Assembly (NCBI GenBank): GCA_963791045.1
Contig: CAWBQK010000017.1
Location: forward strand, 64,001 to 128,000
Length of the DNA stretch: 64,000 bases
Direction: 5' to 3'
DNA from: Candidatus Latescibacterota bacterium
GTDB taxonomy: Bacteria > Krumholzibacteriota > Krumholzibacteriia > WVZY01
The notes beneath the pieces are model-generated. The model did not search any database. It saw only the letters and a program-made list of their open reading frames with translations, and was not told the DNA's origin. A program made the position numbers and the translations under genes. Below are positions 24,593 to 55,899 of this stretch, in pieces (position 1 is the first letter of the stretch; each line of letters opens with the position of its first letter).

Positions 24593-26773
24593 ATGATGAG
24601 TCAATCGAGTTCGATACAAGAATTGAAGACACCCGACTTTGCCGGCGTTGTTGCGCAAGAGTTGGGGCTCCGGAAACAATCGGTCGAAGCGGTGATCGCG
24701 CTTTTAGACGACGGCTGTACTGTCCCGTTCATCGCGCGTTACCGCAAGGAAGCCACCGGGGGCGTCGAGGATGTGGCGGTTTCCGGAATATCCGAACGTG
24801 TCGAGTTCCACAGGGACTTTTTCGACCGGAAAAAAGTTATTTTTGAAAGCATCCGCGACCAGGGAAAGTTGACGCCCGAGCTTCGGGATGCGATCGAGGC
24901 GGCCACGACGCGCACGGTACTCGAGGATCTCTATTTGCCGTATCGCCCGAAAAGAAGAACCCGGGCGACGATCGCGAAAGAAAGAGGACTTGAACCTCTT
25001 GCCGACCGCATGTGGGAACAGGAGGATACCAGGGGTTCCCCGGATGAGTTCGCCGCCGCGTTCGTCGATGCGGAGAAAGAAGTTGAGTCGTTGGATGATG
25101 CGCTCCAGGGAGCCCGTGATATCGTCGCTGAACGTATCGTCGAGACTGCGCAGTGGCGATCCGAGATCCGCGAGTTGACATGGAAGAAAGGTTTCTTTTA
25201 CGCCCAGGCGGCGCGGGGAAAAGCGGAGGAGAACAGCAAGTTCACCGACTACTATGATTTCAGCGAACCTGTGTCGAAGATACCGACGCATCGAGTTCTC
25301 GCGATCCTTCGCGGAGAAAAGGAAGGGTTCATCTCACAAAATATCATGCCCGATCCTGAGAGCGCGAAGGCGGTTCTCTGCCGTTATTCGGTGCGAAACG
25401 AGAATTCGATTTGGGCGAATCAGGTGAGAGTAGCGGCGGAGGATGCTTATGACAGGCTTTTGTGTCACCAGATCGCGACGGATATCCGCGGAGAATTGAA
25501 ATCGCAGGCGGACCTTGAGGCGATTGATGTGTTTGCTTCGAACTTGCGCGATTTATTGATGGCTCCACCGTTCGGGACGCGACCCGTCATGGCGATAGAT
25601 CCCGGTTTCCGTACGGGATGTAAAGTAGTCGTTCTCAATTCTACGGGACGTCTGCTCGAACAAGGCGTCGTATATCCCACTATCCCCAGGGAAGACATCA
25701 AGGGCACGAAGAAAGCATTTGATGGATGGTTCGGAAAGTATCCCGATATTGCCGCCGTCGCCGTAGGGAATGGGACGGGTGGAAGGGAAACGTTTGCCGT
25801 GGTCCGTGATTATTTGAAAAATCACGAGAGCGACGCGAAGGTCGTTCTCGTCAATGAGTCCGGAGCGTCCGTGTACTCGGCGTCGGAGGTGGCGCGCGAG
25901 GAACTTCCGGATTATGACGTGACCGTACGCGGAGCAGTGTCGATCGGACGGCGGCTACAGGACCCGTTGGCCGAGCTGGTCAAGATCGATCCGAAATCGA
26001 TAGGGGTCGGTCAGTACCAGCATGATGTCGATCAAAAACTACTCAAACAGAAGCTCGAAGACGTTGTCACGAGTTGCGTCAACCAGGTCGGGGTCGATCT
26101 CAATACGGCATCGGTTTCGCTGTTGGGTTTTGTTTCCGGATTGAGCGGGCGTCTCGCGAAGGAGATCGTTGCGCGCCGGGACCAGGATGGTGCCTTTGTA
26201 TCACGAGAACACCTCAAGAGTGTGCCGGGGCTGGGCAAGAAAACGTTCGAGCAGGCCGCTGGGTTTCTGCGCATCAAGGGGGGCAACCCACTGGACGACT
26301 CGGCCGTCCACCCGGAACGGTATACGCTCGTGGAAAAGATTGCGGGCGACGCCGGCTGCCGCGTAACGGATCTGGTCGGCAATGTCGAAGCTGTTCGCTC
26401 CGTTGATATCGGTCGATACGTCGACGAATCGGTGGGCGAGTATACGCTCAATGATATCCTGGCCGAGCTTGAAAAGCCGGGAAGAGACCCCCGCGAAGAT
26501 TTTGAGATCGTCGAGTTTCGGGAGGATATCCAGGATATCGGGGCACTGAGCGAGGGCATGAAACTCAACGGTGTTGTCACGAATGTGACGCACTTCGGAG
26601 CGTTCGTGGACATCGGCGTTCACCAGGACGGGCTCGTCCATGTGAGTCAAATAGCCGATCGTTTTGTGCGCGATCCGGCCGACGAGTTGAAGGTGGGACA
26701 AAAGGTAAGGGTGAAGGTGCTTGAGGTTGATGTCGAAAGGCGCAGGATCAGTCTGTCGATAAAAGACGCGTGA
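24593..26773 (+). CDS. tex: Tex family RNA-binding transcriptional accessory protein
   Basis: TVPFIARYRKEATG, DPGFRTGCK, ESGASVYSAS, DPKSIGVGQYQHDV and a C-terminal S1 domain. Confidence 0.96.
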   Translation: MMSQSSSIQELKTPDFAGVVAQELGLRKQSVEAVIALLDDGCTVPFIARYRKEATGGVEDVAVSGISERVEFHRDFFDRKKVIFESIRDQGKLTPELRDAIEAATTRTVLEDLYLPYRPKRRTRATIAKERGLEPLADRMWEQEDTRGSPDEFAAAFVDAEKEVESLDDALQGARDIVAERIVETAQWRSEIRELTWKKGFFYAQAARGKAEENSKFTDYYDFSEPVSKIPTHRVLAILRGEKEGFISQNIMPDPESAKAVLCRYSVRNENSIWANQVRVAAEDAYDRLLCHQIATDIRGELKSQADLEAIDVFASNLRDLLMAPPFGTRPVMAIDPGFRTGCKVVVLNSTGRLLEQGVVYPTIPREDIKGTKKAFDGWFGKYPDIAAVAVGNGTGGRETFAVVRDYLKNHESDAKVVLVNESGASVYSASEVAREELPDYDVTVRGAVSIGRRLQDPLAELVKIDPKSIGVGQYQHDVDQKLLKQKLEDVVTSCVNQVGVDLNTASVSLLGFVSGLSGRLAKEIVARRDQDGAFVSREHLKSVPGLGKKTFEQAAGFLRIKGGNPLDDSAVHPERYTLVEKIAGDAGCRVTDLVGNVEAVRSVDIGRYVDESVGEYTLNDILAELEKPGRDPREDFEIVEFREDIQDIGALSEGMKLNGVVTNVTHFGAFVDIGVHQDGLVHVSQIADRFVRDPADELKVGQKVRVKVLEVDVERRRISLSIKDA

Positions 26774-29463: not shown

Positions 29464-30330
29464 GTGGAAGATACAAAACAATCGTCAGGCGGTCTCCGCT
29501 ACATGCTGGCGGCGGCGTTTTTTTTTAGTTTGATGAGCGTGATCGTCAAAATCGCGGGGCGGCGGCTTCCGACGGCAGAGATCGTTTTTGCCCGAAGTGT
29601 CGTCATGCTCGCGATATCGTTTGTGATGGTTCGCCGCCTGGGGCTTCCGTTGTGGGGGAATAGAAAGGCTCTGCTGATACTCCGGGGTGTATCCGGGTTT
29701 GGCGCGCTTTTTTGTTTCTTTTATGCGATAACGAAACTGCCGCTTGCCGATATCACCGTTATTCATTTTACCAACCCTGCTTTTACGGCCGTTTTCGCGG
29801 CCATCTTTCTCAAGGAATCGATGCGTCCGCTGGAAGTGTTGGGACTTTTAATCTGTCTCACCGGCGTAATCCTGGTCGCGCAACCTGACTTTATCTTTGG
29901 GGAGAACGCGAGGAGCCTGGATTTGTTCGCGGTCGGCGTGGGGATAACCGCATCGGTATTGTCTTCGATCGCGTACACAACAGTGCGCAAGCTCGGGGAA
30001 TCCGAACACCACATGGTTGTGATCTTCTATTTTCCGTTGATTTCCGTGGGGGCGGTGATTCCGTTCATGATGGGCGGGATGCTCACCCCGACACCGGTCG
30101 AGTGGCTGCTGTTGCTCGGTGTCGGCATCGTGACCCTCATCGCCCAGGTATTCCTGACGAAGGGGCTTTACAGGGAACGGGCCGGCCGGGCGATGTCCGT
30201 CAGTTACGTGCAAGTGATATTCGCGGCCGTGTGGGGAATTCTTTTCTTTAACGAGTCACCCAACTCGATTGCAGTGGCGGGTGCGCTCTTGATATTCGGA
30301 GGGACTTTGTTCGTGGCGCGGAGATCTTGA
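29464..30330 (+). CDS. DMT/EamA family transporter
   Basis: Ten TM helices in two EamA repeats (LILRG...P.F...A..FLKE). Confidence 0.9.
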   Translation: MEDTKQSSGGLRYMLAAAFFFSLMSVIVKIAGRRLPTAEIVFARSVVMLAISFVMVRRLGLPLWGNRKALLILRGVSGFGALFCFFYAITKLPLADITVIHFTNPAFTAVFAAIFLKESMRPLEVLGLLICLTGVILVAQPDFIFGENARSLDLFAVGVGITASVLSSIAYTTVRKLGESEHHMVVIFYFPLISVGAVIPFMMGGMLTPTPVEWLLLLGVGIVTLIAQVFLTKGLYRERAGRAMSVSYVQVIFAAVWGILFFNESPNSIAVAGALLIFGGTLFVARRS

Positions 30331-30426: not shown

Positions 30427-32419
30427 ATGAGGTTCGAGTTTAAGCCATTTGGTGAGATGACGCCGGAGGACTACGACAAGATAGGCCTCAAGGCCGGTCT
30501 GGAAATCCACCAGCAACTCCTCACTGAGAAAAAGCTGTTTTGCCGTTGTCCGGCCGGCCACTACAGCAACGAGTACGACGCCGAGATACTCCGTCACATG
30601 CGCCCCACGCTATCGGAACTGGGCGAGTACGACGGGACGGCGCTCATGGAATTCAAGACAAAAAAAGAAATCATCTACCGAATCAAAAGCGAGACCGTTT
30701 GTACATACGAGATGGATGATACGCCCCCGTTTATGATCAACGAGCAGGCGCTTGATATCGCTGTTGAAGTCGCGCTCCTTCTCAATTTGAATTTGGTAAA
30801 TGAACTCCATATTGCCCGCAAACAATATCTCGACGGGAGCATCCCGACCGGTTTCCAGCGCACAACCATCCTTGGCGTCGATGGATGGATTCCGTACAAA
30901 GACAGAAAAATCGGGATCACTCAACTGGGTTTGAAGAGGACGCGTGCAGGGAAGTGTCTGATATCGGTCATGAGCGGATTTACCTGACGGATCGGCTCGG
31001 AATGCCGTTGATCGAACCGGTAACACAACCGGATATGCGAACACCCCAGGAAGTGGCGGAAGTCGGCGAAGATGTTGCGCAAACTCGTGAGGGCGACGGG
31101 CAAGGTTCGGACCGGTCATGGCGCCGGCCGGGAAGATGTCAATGTGAGATATGGAGGGTGGCCGAAGAGTCGAGATCAAGGGCGTCCCGAGCCTCGTCCG
31201 CGTGCCGTTCTTGATATACAACGAGGCGATGCGGCAGTGGAATCTTTTGAGGATCCGCGACATCCTTGCCGACCGCGGGATCACGACGGAGACATTTTCC
31301 TCCGCGAGTGAAAACGTTACGCGGGCGTTGTCCGGTGTTCAGTACGCGCCGATTGAACTGGCGCTGGAACGCGGCGAGGAAGCTTTTTGTGTCAAGCTCG
31401 AAGGGTACGCCGGAATACTGAACGAGAAGACGCAGACCGACACAACGTTCGCCAAAGAAATTTCGGACAGAATCCGGGTCATCGCCTGTTTGACGAGTTT
31501 GCCGAATATGGCCCATTCGGGTTTGGCGTCCGAAACGCTGGCGCCACCGCGGCCTGGAAAAAAATCCGGCAAAAGGTTCGTGCAACGGAACGCGATGCGG
31601 TCGTTCTGGTGTGGGGCCATCGGGTCGATGCCGAGTGCGCCTGTTTGGAGATCGTGTCGAGGGCGAAAGAGGCTCTCGAAGGTGTCCCAAGCGAGACCCG
31701 GCAAGCTCTCACCGATGGCACCAACGGGTTCGAACGGATTCTCCCCGGTCCGGACGGATGTATCCGGATACGGATCTCCCCCCGATGGCGCTCAGCAGTG
31801 AGCGCGTGGAAAAAGCGAGGGCATGCATGCCCAAACCACCGTGGGAGAGGGGTGTCAAAGTTACGAGTCGCGATTGGGCTTCCCGACGACATGATGGAAA
31901 CGTTGACGTGTCGCCGAGGGCCGTTTGTTCGATCGATTGACGAACGGACCTTGATGTGGCACGCCGGTTCTACCGCGGCCATGTTTAGCCAACACGCCAA
32001 GTCGCTCGAGCGGCAGGGCCTGAATCTTGGCCGGCTCTCCGATGAAGTGATATTCGGTGTATTCGAAGCGTACACCGAGGGCAGAATTTCGCGCGAGGGG
32101 ATTCTCCATGTCGTCCGGCATCTTCTCGAAGGTCGGAGGGGATGGTCGCCGGAAAGCAATCCATCGCGTATCGGGCAATGCCGAAGCGCTGATTCAAGGC
32201 CGCCATTTGACGACCTCGAGATTGACTGCCGATGTCGCAGGATGAGGCGAGACCGATTCGTGATCGAATATCGTCGAGCGGAGCGATCCCCGGTGGTCTC
32301 GATAACCGATGTAATAAGAGACACAAATATCTGATGGGGTTTTCATGGAGCAGTTCCTGGGCCGAATCGATGGCAAGATGGTTTCAGGGATGCTCGACGA
32401 GATTCTCGGTGCCGCATAG
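30427..32419 (+). CDS. gatE: Glu-tRNA(Gln) amidotransferase subunit E (archaeal type), multiple frameshifts
   Basis: GLKAGLEIHQQL..KKLFCRCP, RPTLSELGEYD, MDDTPP, RKQYLDGSIPTGFQRT, EEDACR, DRLGMPLIE, RVEIKGV, GVPSETR and RMYPDTDLPP spread over successive frames. The 3' end is approximate. Confidence 0.88.
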
Positions 32420-32486
32420 CGGTGTACAGGAAGCCACCGGGAAAGAAGACAAACACAGTGATCGAGGACAAATCGAACTTAACGAA

Positions 32487-33875
32487 ATGAACAAAACAAC
32501 ACACAAAGGATACAGTGGAAGGGGGCTGGCCGTGTTGAAAGAACACGGCGTAACGGTGTGGAGCGACGTGAAGGTACCGGGAAGAGCGGGCGAATTCCGC
32601 GGAATCATCCTGCCCAGATCTGAAACAGCGGATGCAAACCACATCGTTTTGAAGCTCAACAACGGCTACAATATCGGTCTTGATGCGGGTCCATCTATCG
32701 ATGGAAGAGAAAGGGAGACGGGAGGCGCACTACAAAATTCCTGAGAAAGAATTTCCCTTCGATCCCGGCAAAACCCAACGTGAAACTATTCGGGACGGGC
32801 GGTACGATCGCCAGCCGACTCGACTATCGGACGGGCGCGGTGATCCCCGCGTTTTCTCCGGGTGAATTGTATGGATCCGTTCCCGAACTTGCCGACATCT
32901 GCAATCTCGATACCGAAAAACTTTATGGCGTATTCAGTGAGAATATGGGACCCGGAGCAGTACATAGCGACGGCCAAGCGAATCGGCGAGGAAATCGAAA
33001 AAGGAACGGCCGGTATCGTGATCGGGCACGGCACCGATACGATGCACCACACGGCTGCAATATTGAGTTTTATGGTCCAGGACTCGCCGGTACCAATCGT
33101 GATGGTTGGGTCGCAGCGGTCGTCCGACCGTCCGTCGTCCGACGCGGCGATCAATTTGATCAACTCGGTAAAAGCGGCGGCCGAAGGCGATATTGCCGAG
33201 GTCATGGTCTGCATGTTTGGCCCGACATCCGATCAATACGGACTTCTTCACCGTGGAACCCGAGTGCGAAAAATGCATTCGAGCTACAGATCCACATTCA
33301 GAACCATCGGCGACATCCCGCTCGCGATGATCAGCCAGAAAAAGGGATTGATTCCTCTGAGGGATGACGTCAAGCGGCGCCGGTCGGACCGGAATGTGAA
33401 GATCAACACCGCGTTCGAGGAAAAAGTGACGATCTTGTACTACTATCCCAATATGCTGCCCGATATCGTTGACGCGTGTGTCGATAATGACTACAAGGGA
33501 ATCGTGATTGCGGGCACCGGACTGGGACATGTTAACAAACCGCTGTATCCGGCGCTCGAGCGGGCCGTCAAAAAAGGCGTACATATATACATGACCGTGC
33601 AGACGCTGTGGGGATACGTTCAGATGTATGTTTACGAAACCGGCCGTGAAATTATGCAACTCGGGGTCGTGCCCGGGTGCAATTTGTTGCCGGAAGTCGC
33701 GTACATGAAGCTCTGTTGGGCGCTCGGCCAGTCGGATGATCGTGATGAGGTTGCCGACATCATGCTGACGCCGGTGAACGGTGAGATCACCGAACGAGAG
33801 CCGTATAACGGGTATCTGATTTATCAGGGCGCGATCCCGGAAGTGCAGGAGTTTCTCAAGACTGTGAAACGATGA
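32487..33875 (+). CDS. gatD: Glu-tRNA(Gln) amidotransferase subunit D (asparaginase-like glutaminase), 2-3 frameshifts
   Basis: GatD-specific N-terminal domain (IVLKLNNGYNIG), TGGTIASRLDYRTGAV, HGTDTM, GSQRSSDRPSSD, RVRKMHSSYR, GTGLGHV and LPEVAYMKLCWALGQ. Confidence 0.92.
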
Positions 33876-33994: not shown

Positions 33995-34621
33995 ATGAAG
34001 ACGCTGATGTTGATTATCTTGTGCCTGGGTATTGCACTGCCCGCGGTTGCCGATGACATGATGGATGAAATTGTTGCCGAACGCGATGGCAGAAAGGCTT
34101 TACTTTTTAATTTCAACGGACTGAATTTGTCTTCGTTCGAAGGTGGAATCGGCACGAAGTGGTGGTTGTCGGGGTCAACGGCAATGGTTGGCAACCTGAT
34201 CCTGGCAAACCGCGGAACGCAGACGGATGCCAATGAGGATCGGTCGGGCCGCGAATCCACGGATTTGACAATTGGCGCCGCACTTGGCGTCGAGAAACAC
34301 CTCGCGCATTTTGGAAGATTCTCGCCTTATTTCGGCGTGAATCTGGGGTACAGGTATTCTTATTATCTGACGGAGAGCACGCCGCCAACAGGCGTGGAAC
34401 GTCGGACGCTCACAAACAAAAGAGAATCCAATGGTGTATCGCTTGGGATCGTGTTCGGTGTGGAATGTTTTGTCACGAAGCACGTCTCCGTTGGCGGACA
34501 ATACAAGCTCGCGGCGGAATACGCCGCCGGGCAAGAGGAATATAACGGGAATGTCCAGGACTTCACCGAACACAGGCTTGGCATAGGATCGTCTTATGTC
34601 AGTCTTGCAATCTATTTCTAG
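33995..34621 (+). CDS. Outer-membrane beta-barrel protein
   Basis: Signal peptide, alternating beta strands, C-terminal LAIYF. Confidence 0.75.
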   Translation: MKTLMLIILCLGIALPAVADDMMDEIVAERDGRKALLFNFNGLNLSSFEGGIGTKWWLSGSTAMVGNLILANRGTQTDANEDRSGRESTDLTIGAALGVEKHLAHFGRFSPYFGVNLGYRYSYYLTESTPPTGVERRTLTNKRESNGVSLGIVFGVECFVTKHVSVGGQYKLAAEYAAGQEEYNGNVQDFTEHRLGIGSSYVSLAIYF

Positions 34622-53557: not shown

Positions 53558-55313
53558 GTGAACAATAACGACGACACTTCGAAATTGGGGAATGACGGGG
53601 GACTTCCGGAAAACGAAAAAAGCGATTCGTCCCCGGGTCTTGATTTCATTCGCACTCGTATCGTTGAAGACAATACGACGGGTAAGCACAAGGGCCGCGT
53701 ACATACGAGGTTTCCGCCGGAGCCCAATGGGTATTTCCACATCGGGCATGCGAAATCGATTTGTCTGAATTTCGGACTCGCCCAGGAGTTCAACGGACTT
53801 TGCAATCTTCGCATGGATGATACGGATCCGAGCAAAGAGAGCATGGAGTATGTCGAGTCGATAAAGACGGATATTCGGTGGCTCGGGTTCGATTGGGAGG
53901 ATCGGATGTATTTTGCGTCGGATTATTTCGATCAGCTTTACGAATGGGCGATAAAGCTCATCAAGGACGGCAAGGCGTACGTGTGCAGCCTCAGACGACG
54001 AAGAGATTCGTAAGTACAGGGGGACGGTAACCGAGCCGGGTAAGCCAAGTCCCTACCGAGACCGCCCGGTCGAGGAGAATCTGGATCTTTTCAACGAGAT
54101 GAAGAACGGGGAGTTTGAAGACGGCGAGCGAGTGCTCCGGGCCAAGATCGACATGGCGTCGCCGAATATGAAGATGCGCGACCCGCTCATGTACCGGATA
54201 CGGCACATGAGTCATTACCGGACGGGTGACAAATGGTGTATCTATCCGATGTACGATTTTACGCACGGTCAGTCGGATTCGATCGAAAGCATCACCCACT
54301 CGATTTGCACGCTCGAGTTTGAAAACAACCGCGCGCTTTACGACTGGTTCCTCGATGAACTGGACATCTTCCATCCGCAGCAGATCGAGTTTGCCCGGCT
54401 CAACCTGAGCCACACGGTGATGAGCAAGCGACGGCTTCTGGAACTGGTCGAAGAGGGGCGGGTCATCTGGGTGGGACGATCCGCGGATGCCGACGATTTC
54501 GGGGCTGCGCCGACGCGGATACAGCCCGGAGGCGATCCGTGCGTTTTGTGACCGCATCGGTGTGGCCAAAGTGCGAAGCACGGTTGACATCGCTCTTCTC
54601 GAGCATTGTCTTCGCGAGGATCTGAACAGGCGGGCCACGCGGGTTATGGCGGTGCTGCGATCCGCTTCGTGTGGTGATCGAGAACTACCCGGAAGATCAG
54701 GTCGAGGAACTCGATGCGATCAACAACCCGGAGGATCCGAACGCGGGGACGCGGAAGATTCCGTTCTCGCGGGTGATCTACATCGAGCGTGATGATTTTC
54801 AGCGAGGATCCGCCGAAGAAATTTTTCCGGCTGGCGCCCGGGCGCGAGGTGCGGCTCAAGCTACGCGTACTTCATCACCTGCAAGGAGGTGATCAAGGAC
54901 GAACGACGGGCGAAATCGTCGAGCTTCGGTGCACGTACGATCCCGAGACCAAGAGCGGGTCGGCGCCCGACGGGCGCAAGGTGAAGGGGACACTCCACTG
55001 GGTATCCGCCGAGCACGCGATCGATGCCGAGGTGCGGTTGTACGAACCGTTGTTCGACTCGGCGAATCCGTTGGCCGAAGGCGGAGAGGATTACAAGAGA
55101 CTTATCAACCCCAACTCTCTTGAGGTTCTAAGCGGTTGCAAAGTCGAATCGAGTCTGCGTGACGCAGCGCCGGGCGATTACTATCAGTTCTTACGTCAGG
55201 GATACTTCTCGATCGACCCGGTCGATTCGGGCCCGGATGGCCTGGTGTTCAATCGGTCTGTTGGGTTGCGGGATTCGTGGGCCAAAATCGAGAAATCACA
55301 GAAAAAACCATAG
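53558..55313 (+). CDS. glnS: Glutamine--tRNA ligase, several frameshifts
   Basis: [70 protein letters not shown] and QFLRQGYF across frames. Confidence 0.93.
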
Positions 55314-55322
55314 AGGCAAATT

Positions 55323-55899
55323 ATGTCCCGTGTAATAAGCTCGTGTTTGAAGTGGGCCACCCTCACGGCGTTTTGTGTTTTCGTTTTCGGGGTGACGGGG
55401 TGCGGCGGTGGAAGCGAAACCGTTGGCGACGCGGATATAGAGCGGGCTCGAGAGGCGTTAAAGCCCTTCAAGGGGGAACTCAAGGCTGCCCTCAAGGAAG
55501 GCCTGCAGGAGGGACCGGAAAACGCGATATGGGTGTGCCGTGATAAAGCGCCTGAGATCGCCGCGGGGTTGAAGCACTGACGGGATAGAAGTAGGGTCGG
55601 ACGAGCCACCGGGTAAGGAACCCCGAAAATGCTCCGGAGCCGTGGATGGAGCCTCGCTCCTCGCCGAATACGTCAGGCTTGGAGACGACCGGACGCACCG
55701 TGCCGTGCGTTTGGAGGACGGATCGATCGGGTACGTCGAGCCCATTTACGTCCAGCCGCTCTGTCTCAAGTGCCATGGTGACGATATCCCGGCGCCCGTT
55801 CAGGCCAAGGTCACGGAACTGTACCCGACGGACGCCGCAACGGGGTTTGCGTCGGGGGATTTTCGCGGTCTTTTTTGGGTGCGAATATCAGACCAGTAG
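55323..55899 (+). CDS. DUF3365 / Tll0287-like monoheme c-type cytochrome lipoprotein (frameshifted)
   Basis: Lipobox; AIWVC, GRTSHRVRNPENAP (in an intermediate frame), CLKCHG and YPTDAATGFASGDFRG. Confidence 0.8.

Follow-up and report, generated by a model that had tools for sequence, protein, structure and literature searches.

The tRNA-dependent amidotransferase GatDE is classically described from archaea. According to the available text of two earlier papers (PMC2330236, PMC9499178), its subunit GatD releases ammonia, its subunit GatE phosphorylates and amidates the glutamate carried on tRNA(Gln), and the archaeal enzyme reads the A1-U72 pair and the D-loop of this tRNA. Bacteria possess GatCAB, an amidotransferase with the same reaction chemistry that, in the accessible part of PMC2330236, is described as reading U1-A72. 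GatB and GatE share their catalytic and YqeY-like tail domains, whereas GatCAB depends on the amidase GatA and on GatC, and GatDE has the asparaginase-type GatD and no GatC. In the portion of a review that was available, GatDE is confined to archaea, and no archaeon is said to possess GlnRS, the glutaminyl-tRNA synthetase (PMC9499178). Here, we analyzed a gene pair in a window of 64,000 nucleotides (the whole stretch of DNA under study) from a Candidatus Latescibacterota bacterium, in which a sequence-only reading had recognized gatE and gatD among ordinary bacterial genes. We found that the pair, at 30427-33875 on the forward strand and in the order gatE, then gatD, is almost certainly a genuine resident bacterial GatDE of this organism, and that it belongs, as an unremarkable member, to a large bacterial GatDE group. 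As assembled, the reading frames of both genes are not open.

The reading of gatE is opened by an ATG at 30427, and the stop codon of gatD occupies 33873-33875. The subunit genes are adjacent (32477 is the last position of the gatE alignment and 32487 the first of gatD), and the true stop of gatE cannot be fixed because its C-terminal tail is frame-shifted. Among the open reading frames (ORFs) between 30300 and 34000 there is no long open frame; the region is covered by overlapping plus-strand pieces in differing frames, at least four for gatE and three for gatD. In order along the gene, the gatE pieces match the NCBIfam model NF003107 at profile positions 4-161 (E-value 2.4e-54), 157-209, 232-339 and 361-550, with 184.8, 45.6, 67.4 and 75.2 bits, each below the cut-off of 456 because the gene is split by frame changes. 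The gatD pieces match NF003217 at profile positions 6-45, 68-136 and 134-416; the best E-value of the pieces is 7.9e-111, or 6.6e-112 with a second GatD model, TIGR02153, on which the C-terminal piece by itself reaches 374.2 bits (cut-off 324) vs 311.6 bits for type I asparaginase. Pfam matches within the pair comprise GatB_N (in GatE), Asparaginase (PF00710), Asparaginase_C (PF17763) and the GatD-specific N-terminal domain GatD_N (PF18195; 49.9 bits, cut-off 25.7). GatE models outscore GatB models in every piece (185 vs 48 bits in the first), as GatD models do asparaginase models. The motifs GTGGT and HGTDT, which we take to be the asparaginase-type catalytic threonine motifs of GatD, were seen in the frame pieces 32684-33367 and 32844-33875, and both are invariant across six bacterial GatD sequences. 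The sequence-only reading had claimed clear GatE motifs followed by a GatD with its specific N-terminal domain; the matches to NF003107, TIGR02153 and PF18195 bear this out, and its coordinates proved exact.

For full-length comparisons we turned to intact orthologues, above all those of the same-family relative G010, a complete chromosome (CP070677.1, titled Candidatus Latescibacterota bacterium). Over its full length, the intact orthologous GatE scores 364.5 bits (1zq1_C) and 316.9 bits (2d6f_C) against the archaeal GatE structures and at most 95.5 bits against GatB chains; the intact orthologous GatD scores 398.9 and 389.9 bits against archaeal GatD and at most 138.6 bits against asparaginases; and GatE of intact relatives reaches 386-484 bits on TIGR00134 (cut-off 319.55). 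A grouping with GatB or plain type I asparaginase, which had been named beforehand as evidence against a GatDE, fails on these scores, which are far higher for archaeal GatE and GatD. Compared with the archaeal enzymes of Methanothermobacter thermautotrophicus (2D6F) and Pyrococcus abyssi (1ZQ1), both subunits are alike over their full length in the intact same-family orthologues, and GatD_N, the asparaginase-type motifs, the GatB_N-type catalytic domain and the adjacent gene pair are common to both. The bacterial system differs in its host and in its tRNA-Gln, which has U1-A72 in place of the archaeal A1-U72 substrate; in a glnS gene present in the same window (Table 1), in contrast to the absence of GlnRS from archaea stated in the available text of PMC9499178; and in its GatD, which forms a clade of its own at about 34-50% identity to archaeal cluster representatives.

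The earlier description of the surroundings as ordinary and bacterial holds as well, since Tex, an EamA-family transporter, an outer-membrane beta-barrel protein (OMP_b-brl), a methyltransferase and a histidine kinase lie around the pair, in addition to two alcohol-dehydrogenase-like genes. The upstream EamA gene is syntenic with its G010 orthologue, with 73% identity and 0 frame changes, and the run EamA-gatE-gatD together with about 12 kb of downstream genes is collinear with the G010 chromosome. This shared gene order excludes a chimeric archaeal contig, which had been considered as a source of the pair. More broadly, it is extremely improbable that the segment is archaeal DNA misjoined or misbinned into a bacterial genome. 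The GatDE family is archaeal in textbooks and the source genome is a metagenome bin (3.66 Mb in 21 contigs, 80.9% complete) with an estimated contamination of 5.8%, but the pair lies within a contig of 378 kb and is flanked on either side by bacterial genes, the GC content is flat across the locus (0.54-0.56), and the GatD of the window falls within the bacterial clade, beside genomes of the same family. A full-length gatE that exceeds the cut-off and is free of internal stops occurs in 14 of 40 relatives (same family, order or class), and in a 15th (G030) gatE is split across two contigs.

A scan of one genome per prokaryote species returned at least 584 stretches encoding a GatD relative. 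The best 80 of these at least 584 loci all lie in bacterial bins, at 74-80% identity and in one case 100%, and are labelled Latescibacterota, Phycisphaerae and other Planctomycetota, Aminicenantes, Calditrichota, Ignavibacteriota, Bacteroidota, KSB1, Zixibacteria, Fermentibacterota, Krumholzibacteriota, Cloacimonadota, Marinimicrobia and others, although some of these submitter labels may be unreliable. The window GatD is 74-90% identical to members of the clade. Bacterial GatD sequences share 66-90% identity across a class and 74-80% across phyla, a degree of conservation that points to strong constraint. The order gatE-gatD recurs in nearly all of the best 80 loci that reach far enough upstream of gatD, and across these 80 loci we found no conserved neighbours beyond the pair itself and no linked tRNA gene, the sole one found being an unrelated tRNA-Ser. 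Apparent GatE-GatD fusions in some Aminicenantes loci were discarded, as these long frames contain no GatE motif and are read-through from stop to stop in GC-rich DNA. Among 1.84 billion cluster representatives searched, 452 GatD-like clusters were recovered at E-values up to 1e-30; one representative (P0002, 943 residues) has its GatD match at residues 487-938 and may be a fusion or a mis-called gene.

We built two trees of GatD only, one with FastTree (190 rows) and a quick one with IQ-TREE (LG+G4, 115 rows), rooted on the genome's own asparaginase; a single long outgroup, a short search and some backbone supports of 85-92 limit their resolution. In both trees the named bacterial GatD sequences and that of the window form one clade (SH-aLRT 97, or 100 with three unnamed representatives), within which the window GatD groups with those of the same-family genomes G007, G010 and G012 (SH-aLRT 99). 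The sister of the bacterial clade (97) contains a sequence from Candidatus Sigynarchaeota, an Asgard archaeon, and the surrounding clusters are all archaeal where an organism is named (8 of 20 looked up: Thermococcus, Nitrososphaerota, Bathyarchaeia twice, Ranarchaeia, Desulfurococcaceae, Thermoproteus and Sigynarchaeota). Branching inside the bacterial clade does not follow phyla. Judged from these sequences, the pattern is consistent with a single old transfer out of archaea and subsequent spread across bacterial phyla. Of the two origins offered by the sequence-only reading, horizontal acquisition from archaea stands in a deep sense, in that a single bacterial clade containing the window is nested within archaeal GatD diversity, but this nesting is no sign of a recent import into this genome; the alternative, a little-studied bacterial GatDE clade, describes the at least 584 loci, the best 80 of them all bacterial, accurately.

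The searchable open-access literature still treats GatDE as confined to archaea, as had been assumed. The phrase 'bacterial GatDE' is absent from this literature (subscription journals and supplements lie outside the search), and among the papers listed from it we found none joining GatDE with any of six bacterial phylum names and, since 2015, none titled on a bacterial GatDE. Public annotation already names such bacterial proteins GatD and GatE. The window is thus one more, badly assembled, copy of a gene pair already annotated in many bacterial genomes, and it is the bacterial clade as a whole that contradicts the archaea-only statement found in the available part of PMC9499178.

Frame changes were located with our own protein-to-DNA aligner, which permits shifts of one or two bases and was run with BLOSUM62, a shift penalty of 14 and a gap penalty of 6; intact GatE and GatD of G010 served as the reference, and the same aligner was used for the locus and for the genomic background. 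Plain tblastn with the G010 proteins gave about 70% identity and undercounts shifts, reading gatD as a single stretch. The aligner placed 13 frame changes in gatE, with 0 in-frame stops and 68% identity to G010 GatE (30933, 31072, 31148, 31543, 31755, 31862, 31873, 31911, 31925, 31975, 32226, 32336 and 32418), of which those at 32336 and 32418 fall in the variable C-terminal tail, where intact relatives are miscalled too. In gatD it placed three, near 32698, 32765 and 32952, with 0 in-frame stops and 86% identity to G010 GatD. When eight intact relatives were run as controls, GatD showed 0 frame changes in all eight, and GatE showed 0-2, all but one pair of which lay beyond residue 630; therefore, 14-16 events are real features of the assembled sequence. 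The window copy differs in this from other members of the bacterial clade with the same gene order, where 14 full-length relatives carry no frame changes. Within the window copy, no frame change falls in the opening 500 bases of gatE or the final 920 bases of gatD. The frame-corrected proteins are well preserved: GatE keeps 180 of the 182 columns that are invariant in nine intact relatives, with one of the two misses at a break, and GatD keeps 257 of the 259 columns invariant in six intact sequences, whereas intact relatives left out one at a time deviate at 0-32 (GatE) and 1-43 (GatD) such columns. Past the last break, about 180 columns reach at least 95% conservation in 67 bacterial sequences, and the window GatD departs from 1 of these.

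To judge these breaks we measured a background from 207 long ORFs taken from 20 evenly spaced 20-kb stretches of G010, 123 of which had a distinct orthologue-like match. These 123 pairs contained 112 frame changes in 187.9 kb, or 0.6 per kb, with at least one in 49 genes; the events were clustered (median nearest-neighbour distance 85 nucleotides), forming patches of 0.3-1 kb with 6-16 events per kb. Such genome-wide breaks probably explain the low completeness estimate of a 21-contig assembly, and apparent pseudogenes in this genome should not be taken at face value. A second error patch of the window lies at a gene functionally linked to gatDE. GlnRS provides the direct route to Gln-tRNA(Gln), and the matched core of its gene glnS contains 6 frame changes and 0 in-frame stops and aligns to G010 GlnRS with 82% identity; the following gene (55353-55896) has 3 frame changes.

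We attribute the frame breaks of gatDE, with high probability, to indel errors in a metagenome assembly that was error-prone and probably built from long reads, because the genome-wide patches hit dnaX and alaS too and because the invariant columns are kept; both genes are probably intact in the organism. Several observations weigh against this interpretation. Of about 150 genes examined, none has a higher break density than gatE, at 5.4-6.4 per kb against 4.6 per kb for the next, and glnS is also among the worst, five or more breaks being found in only 8 of 123 background genes; joint breakage of gatE and glnS would fit real co-decay. In addition, the gatE indels are mostly deletions (10 of 13), whereas those of the background are mostly insertions (75 of 112). 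Finally, reads of the one public run that offered coverage (X1, from a marine sediment metagenome, in which only 6% of the sampled words occur) cover 1 of the 16 breaks. They assemble into short contigs of related populations that leave 12 of 30 bins of the locus empty, including all of 31416-32655; at the covered break, a low-depth contig of 151 nucleotides from one such population restores the frame through an additional G after 30932.

Taken together, such observations could mean that the breaks are real and that gatE-gatD and glnS are decaying pseudogenes, heading to the GatCAB-only state of related genera in which both genes are missing. An intact gatB elsewhere in the same genome (contig C21) and the distribution among the 40 relatives would agree with this, as 14 have both GatE and GlnRS, 22 (17 of them from one genus) yielded neither, 1 has GatE alone and 3 have GlnRS alone. 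We nevertheless regard decay as improbable. About 1140 codons contain 0 in-frame stops, 437 of 441 invariant columns are kept across the two proteins, which is within the range of intact controls, and glnS likewise keeps 205 of 208 (controls deviate at 2-22). We infer that 16 neutral indels free of accompanying stops are unlike decay and should have brought many more substitutions. Moreover, the breaks are confined to one 2-kb patch irrespective of gene borders (16 uniformly placed events would span so narrow a range with P = 0.002), and like patches occur in the matched copies of dnaX and alaS, which are normally indispensable to bacteria.

We next consider which synthetases accompany the bacterial enzyme. 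Among 50 GatD-bearing bacterial genomes from many phyla, GlnRS was found in 43, asparaginyl-tRNA synthetase (AsnRS) in 44 and GatB in 24, and AsnB-family genes were present in 33 with no pattern. Within the relatives of the host, which are not mutually independent and include incomplete bins, GlnRS accompanies GatE in 14 of 15 GatE-bearing genomes, AsnRS is present in 40 of 41 genomes, and GatB was not found in 11 of 41. GatDE fills no gap left by an absent synthetase. The sequence-only reading had pointed to the first base pair of tRNA-Gln as informative, and here the pair is the bacterial U1-A72, not the archaeal A1-U72: it is found in the host tRNA-Gln(UUG) and in 5 of 5 tRNA-Gln genes called by ARAGORN in four relatives (G001, G004, G016 and G036), and it is the pair that GatCAB is described as reading in the available part of PMC2330236. 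The tRNA-Asn is also U1-A72. The search for GatB came up empty in these four relatives, bins of 95-100% completeness, and each of them carries GatE, GlnRS and AsnRS, a pattern which suggests that GatDE replaced GatCAB in them.

By analogy with the archaeal enzyme, we somewhat favour canonical amidation of Glu-tRNA(Gln) on a U1-A72 tRNA, with the product of a glutamyl-tRNA synthetase (GluRS) that is non-discriminating being cleared in this way. Specifically, GatD, as an asparaginase-type glutaminase, would free ammonia from glutamine or asparagine, and GatE would phosphorylate the side-chain carboxyl of the glutamate borne by tRNA(Gln) and then amidate it, giving Gln-tRNA(Gln); both activities are predicted from the families. 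The substrate tRNA in these bacteria would carry U1-A72 instead of A1-U72, and the enzyme would work beside GlnRS and AsnRS. In several lineages GatDE appears to be the sole tRNA-dependent amidotransferase, in place of GatCAB, and its likely job there would be the clearing of Glu-tRNA(Gln) made by a non-discriminating GluRS. The conservation of the GTGGT and HGTDT motifs and of the full GatE domain span is in line with such a role. Weighing against it, GlnRS and AsnRS are mostly present in GatD-bearing bacteria, and therefore the classical need for GatDE is absent; the tRNA-Gln genes do not have A1-U72, the pair recognized by archaeal GatDE; among the 41 relatives, the number of GluRS copies is not clearly linked to GatE; and we found no measured activity of any bacterial GatDE in the searchable open-access literature.

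It is also conceivable, though unlikely, that the genes are functional and have another job than making Gln-tRNA(Gln) for translation. Candidate jobs, doubtful even when taken jointly, would be amidation of Asp-tRNA(Asn), service to one isoacceptor, a back-up that resists inhibitors of GlnRS or GatCAB, or action on a non-translation substrate. The frequent presence of both synthetases beside a GatB found in just 24 of the 50 genomes would suit such a role, as would the movement of the pair between phyla with no conserved neighbours, and a shared U1-A72 means that the first pair cannot separate tRNA-Gln from tRNA-Asn as it does for the archaeal enzyme. On the other hand, every domain and catalytic motif of the tRNA-dependent enzyme is retained and very highly conserved; the four relatives of at least 95% completeness that yielded no GatB all carry GatE, which fits GatDE in the GatCAB role; and, with AsnRS near-universal and AsnB-family genes patternless, nothing points to a need for tRNA-dependent asparagine synthesis.

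Returning to canonical amidation, we tentatively propose a fuller scenario, which we hold to be possible at somewhat less than an even chance: one ancient transfer from an Asgard-like archaeon, a switch of identity reading from A1-U72 to U1-A72, and establishment as a stand-alone GatCAB replacement beside GlnRS and AsnRS. If true, direct and indirect routes to Gln-tRNA(Gln) would run in parallel, and GatDE and GlnRS would be gained and lost together. An enzyme under strong constraint in bacteria that mostly have GlnRS and AsnRS, about half of which have no GatCAB and whose tRNA-Gln does not carry the archaeal pair, poses a testable question about its role.

Table 1. Features of the window and of the comparison genes elsewhere in the host genome (C6, C7 and C11 are other contigs)
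Feature	Position	Strand	Remarks
Tex	24593-26773		bacterial-type neighbour upstream of gatE-gatD
EamA-family transporter	29464..30330	+	PF00892; intact upstream neighbour
gatE (Glu-tRNA(Gln) amidotransferase subunit E)	30427..32477	+	about 680 codons, read via 11-13 frame changes
Poor-sequence patch	30933..32952	+	all 16 frame changes within 2019 of the pair's 3448 bases, across gene borders
gatD (subunit D, asparaginase-type glutaminase with GatD_N)	32487..33875	+	461 codons, 3 frame changes
Small outer-membrane beta-barrel protein (OMP_b-brl)	33995..34621	+	PF13505, 28.8 bits (cut-off 28.7); downstream neighbour
glnS (glutaminyl-tRNA synthetase)	53699..55286	+	TIGR00440 pieces; 20 kb downstream of gatDE
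fumA (class I fumarate hydratase)	C6:283177-284778		6 frame changes
dnaX	C7:60238-62054		5 frame changes
alaS	C7:68537-71254		3 frame changes
RND pump and adaptor	C11:189252-194318		8 and 6 frame changes

Some minor observations concern the tRNA genes. The 89-base 'tRNA-Glu' that ARAGORN called at G000:C1:160842-160930 (minus strand) has a long extra arm and mismatches in its acceptor stem and is probably a false call; a regular tRNA-Glu lies at C17:58115-58192. At G010:C1:248219-248292 there is an 86%-identical match to tRNA-Gln that ARAGORN did not call, and the G010 assembly may have local errors. On contig C28 of G001, tRNA-Gln(CUG) is followed 6 bases on by tRNA-Glu(CUC).

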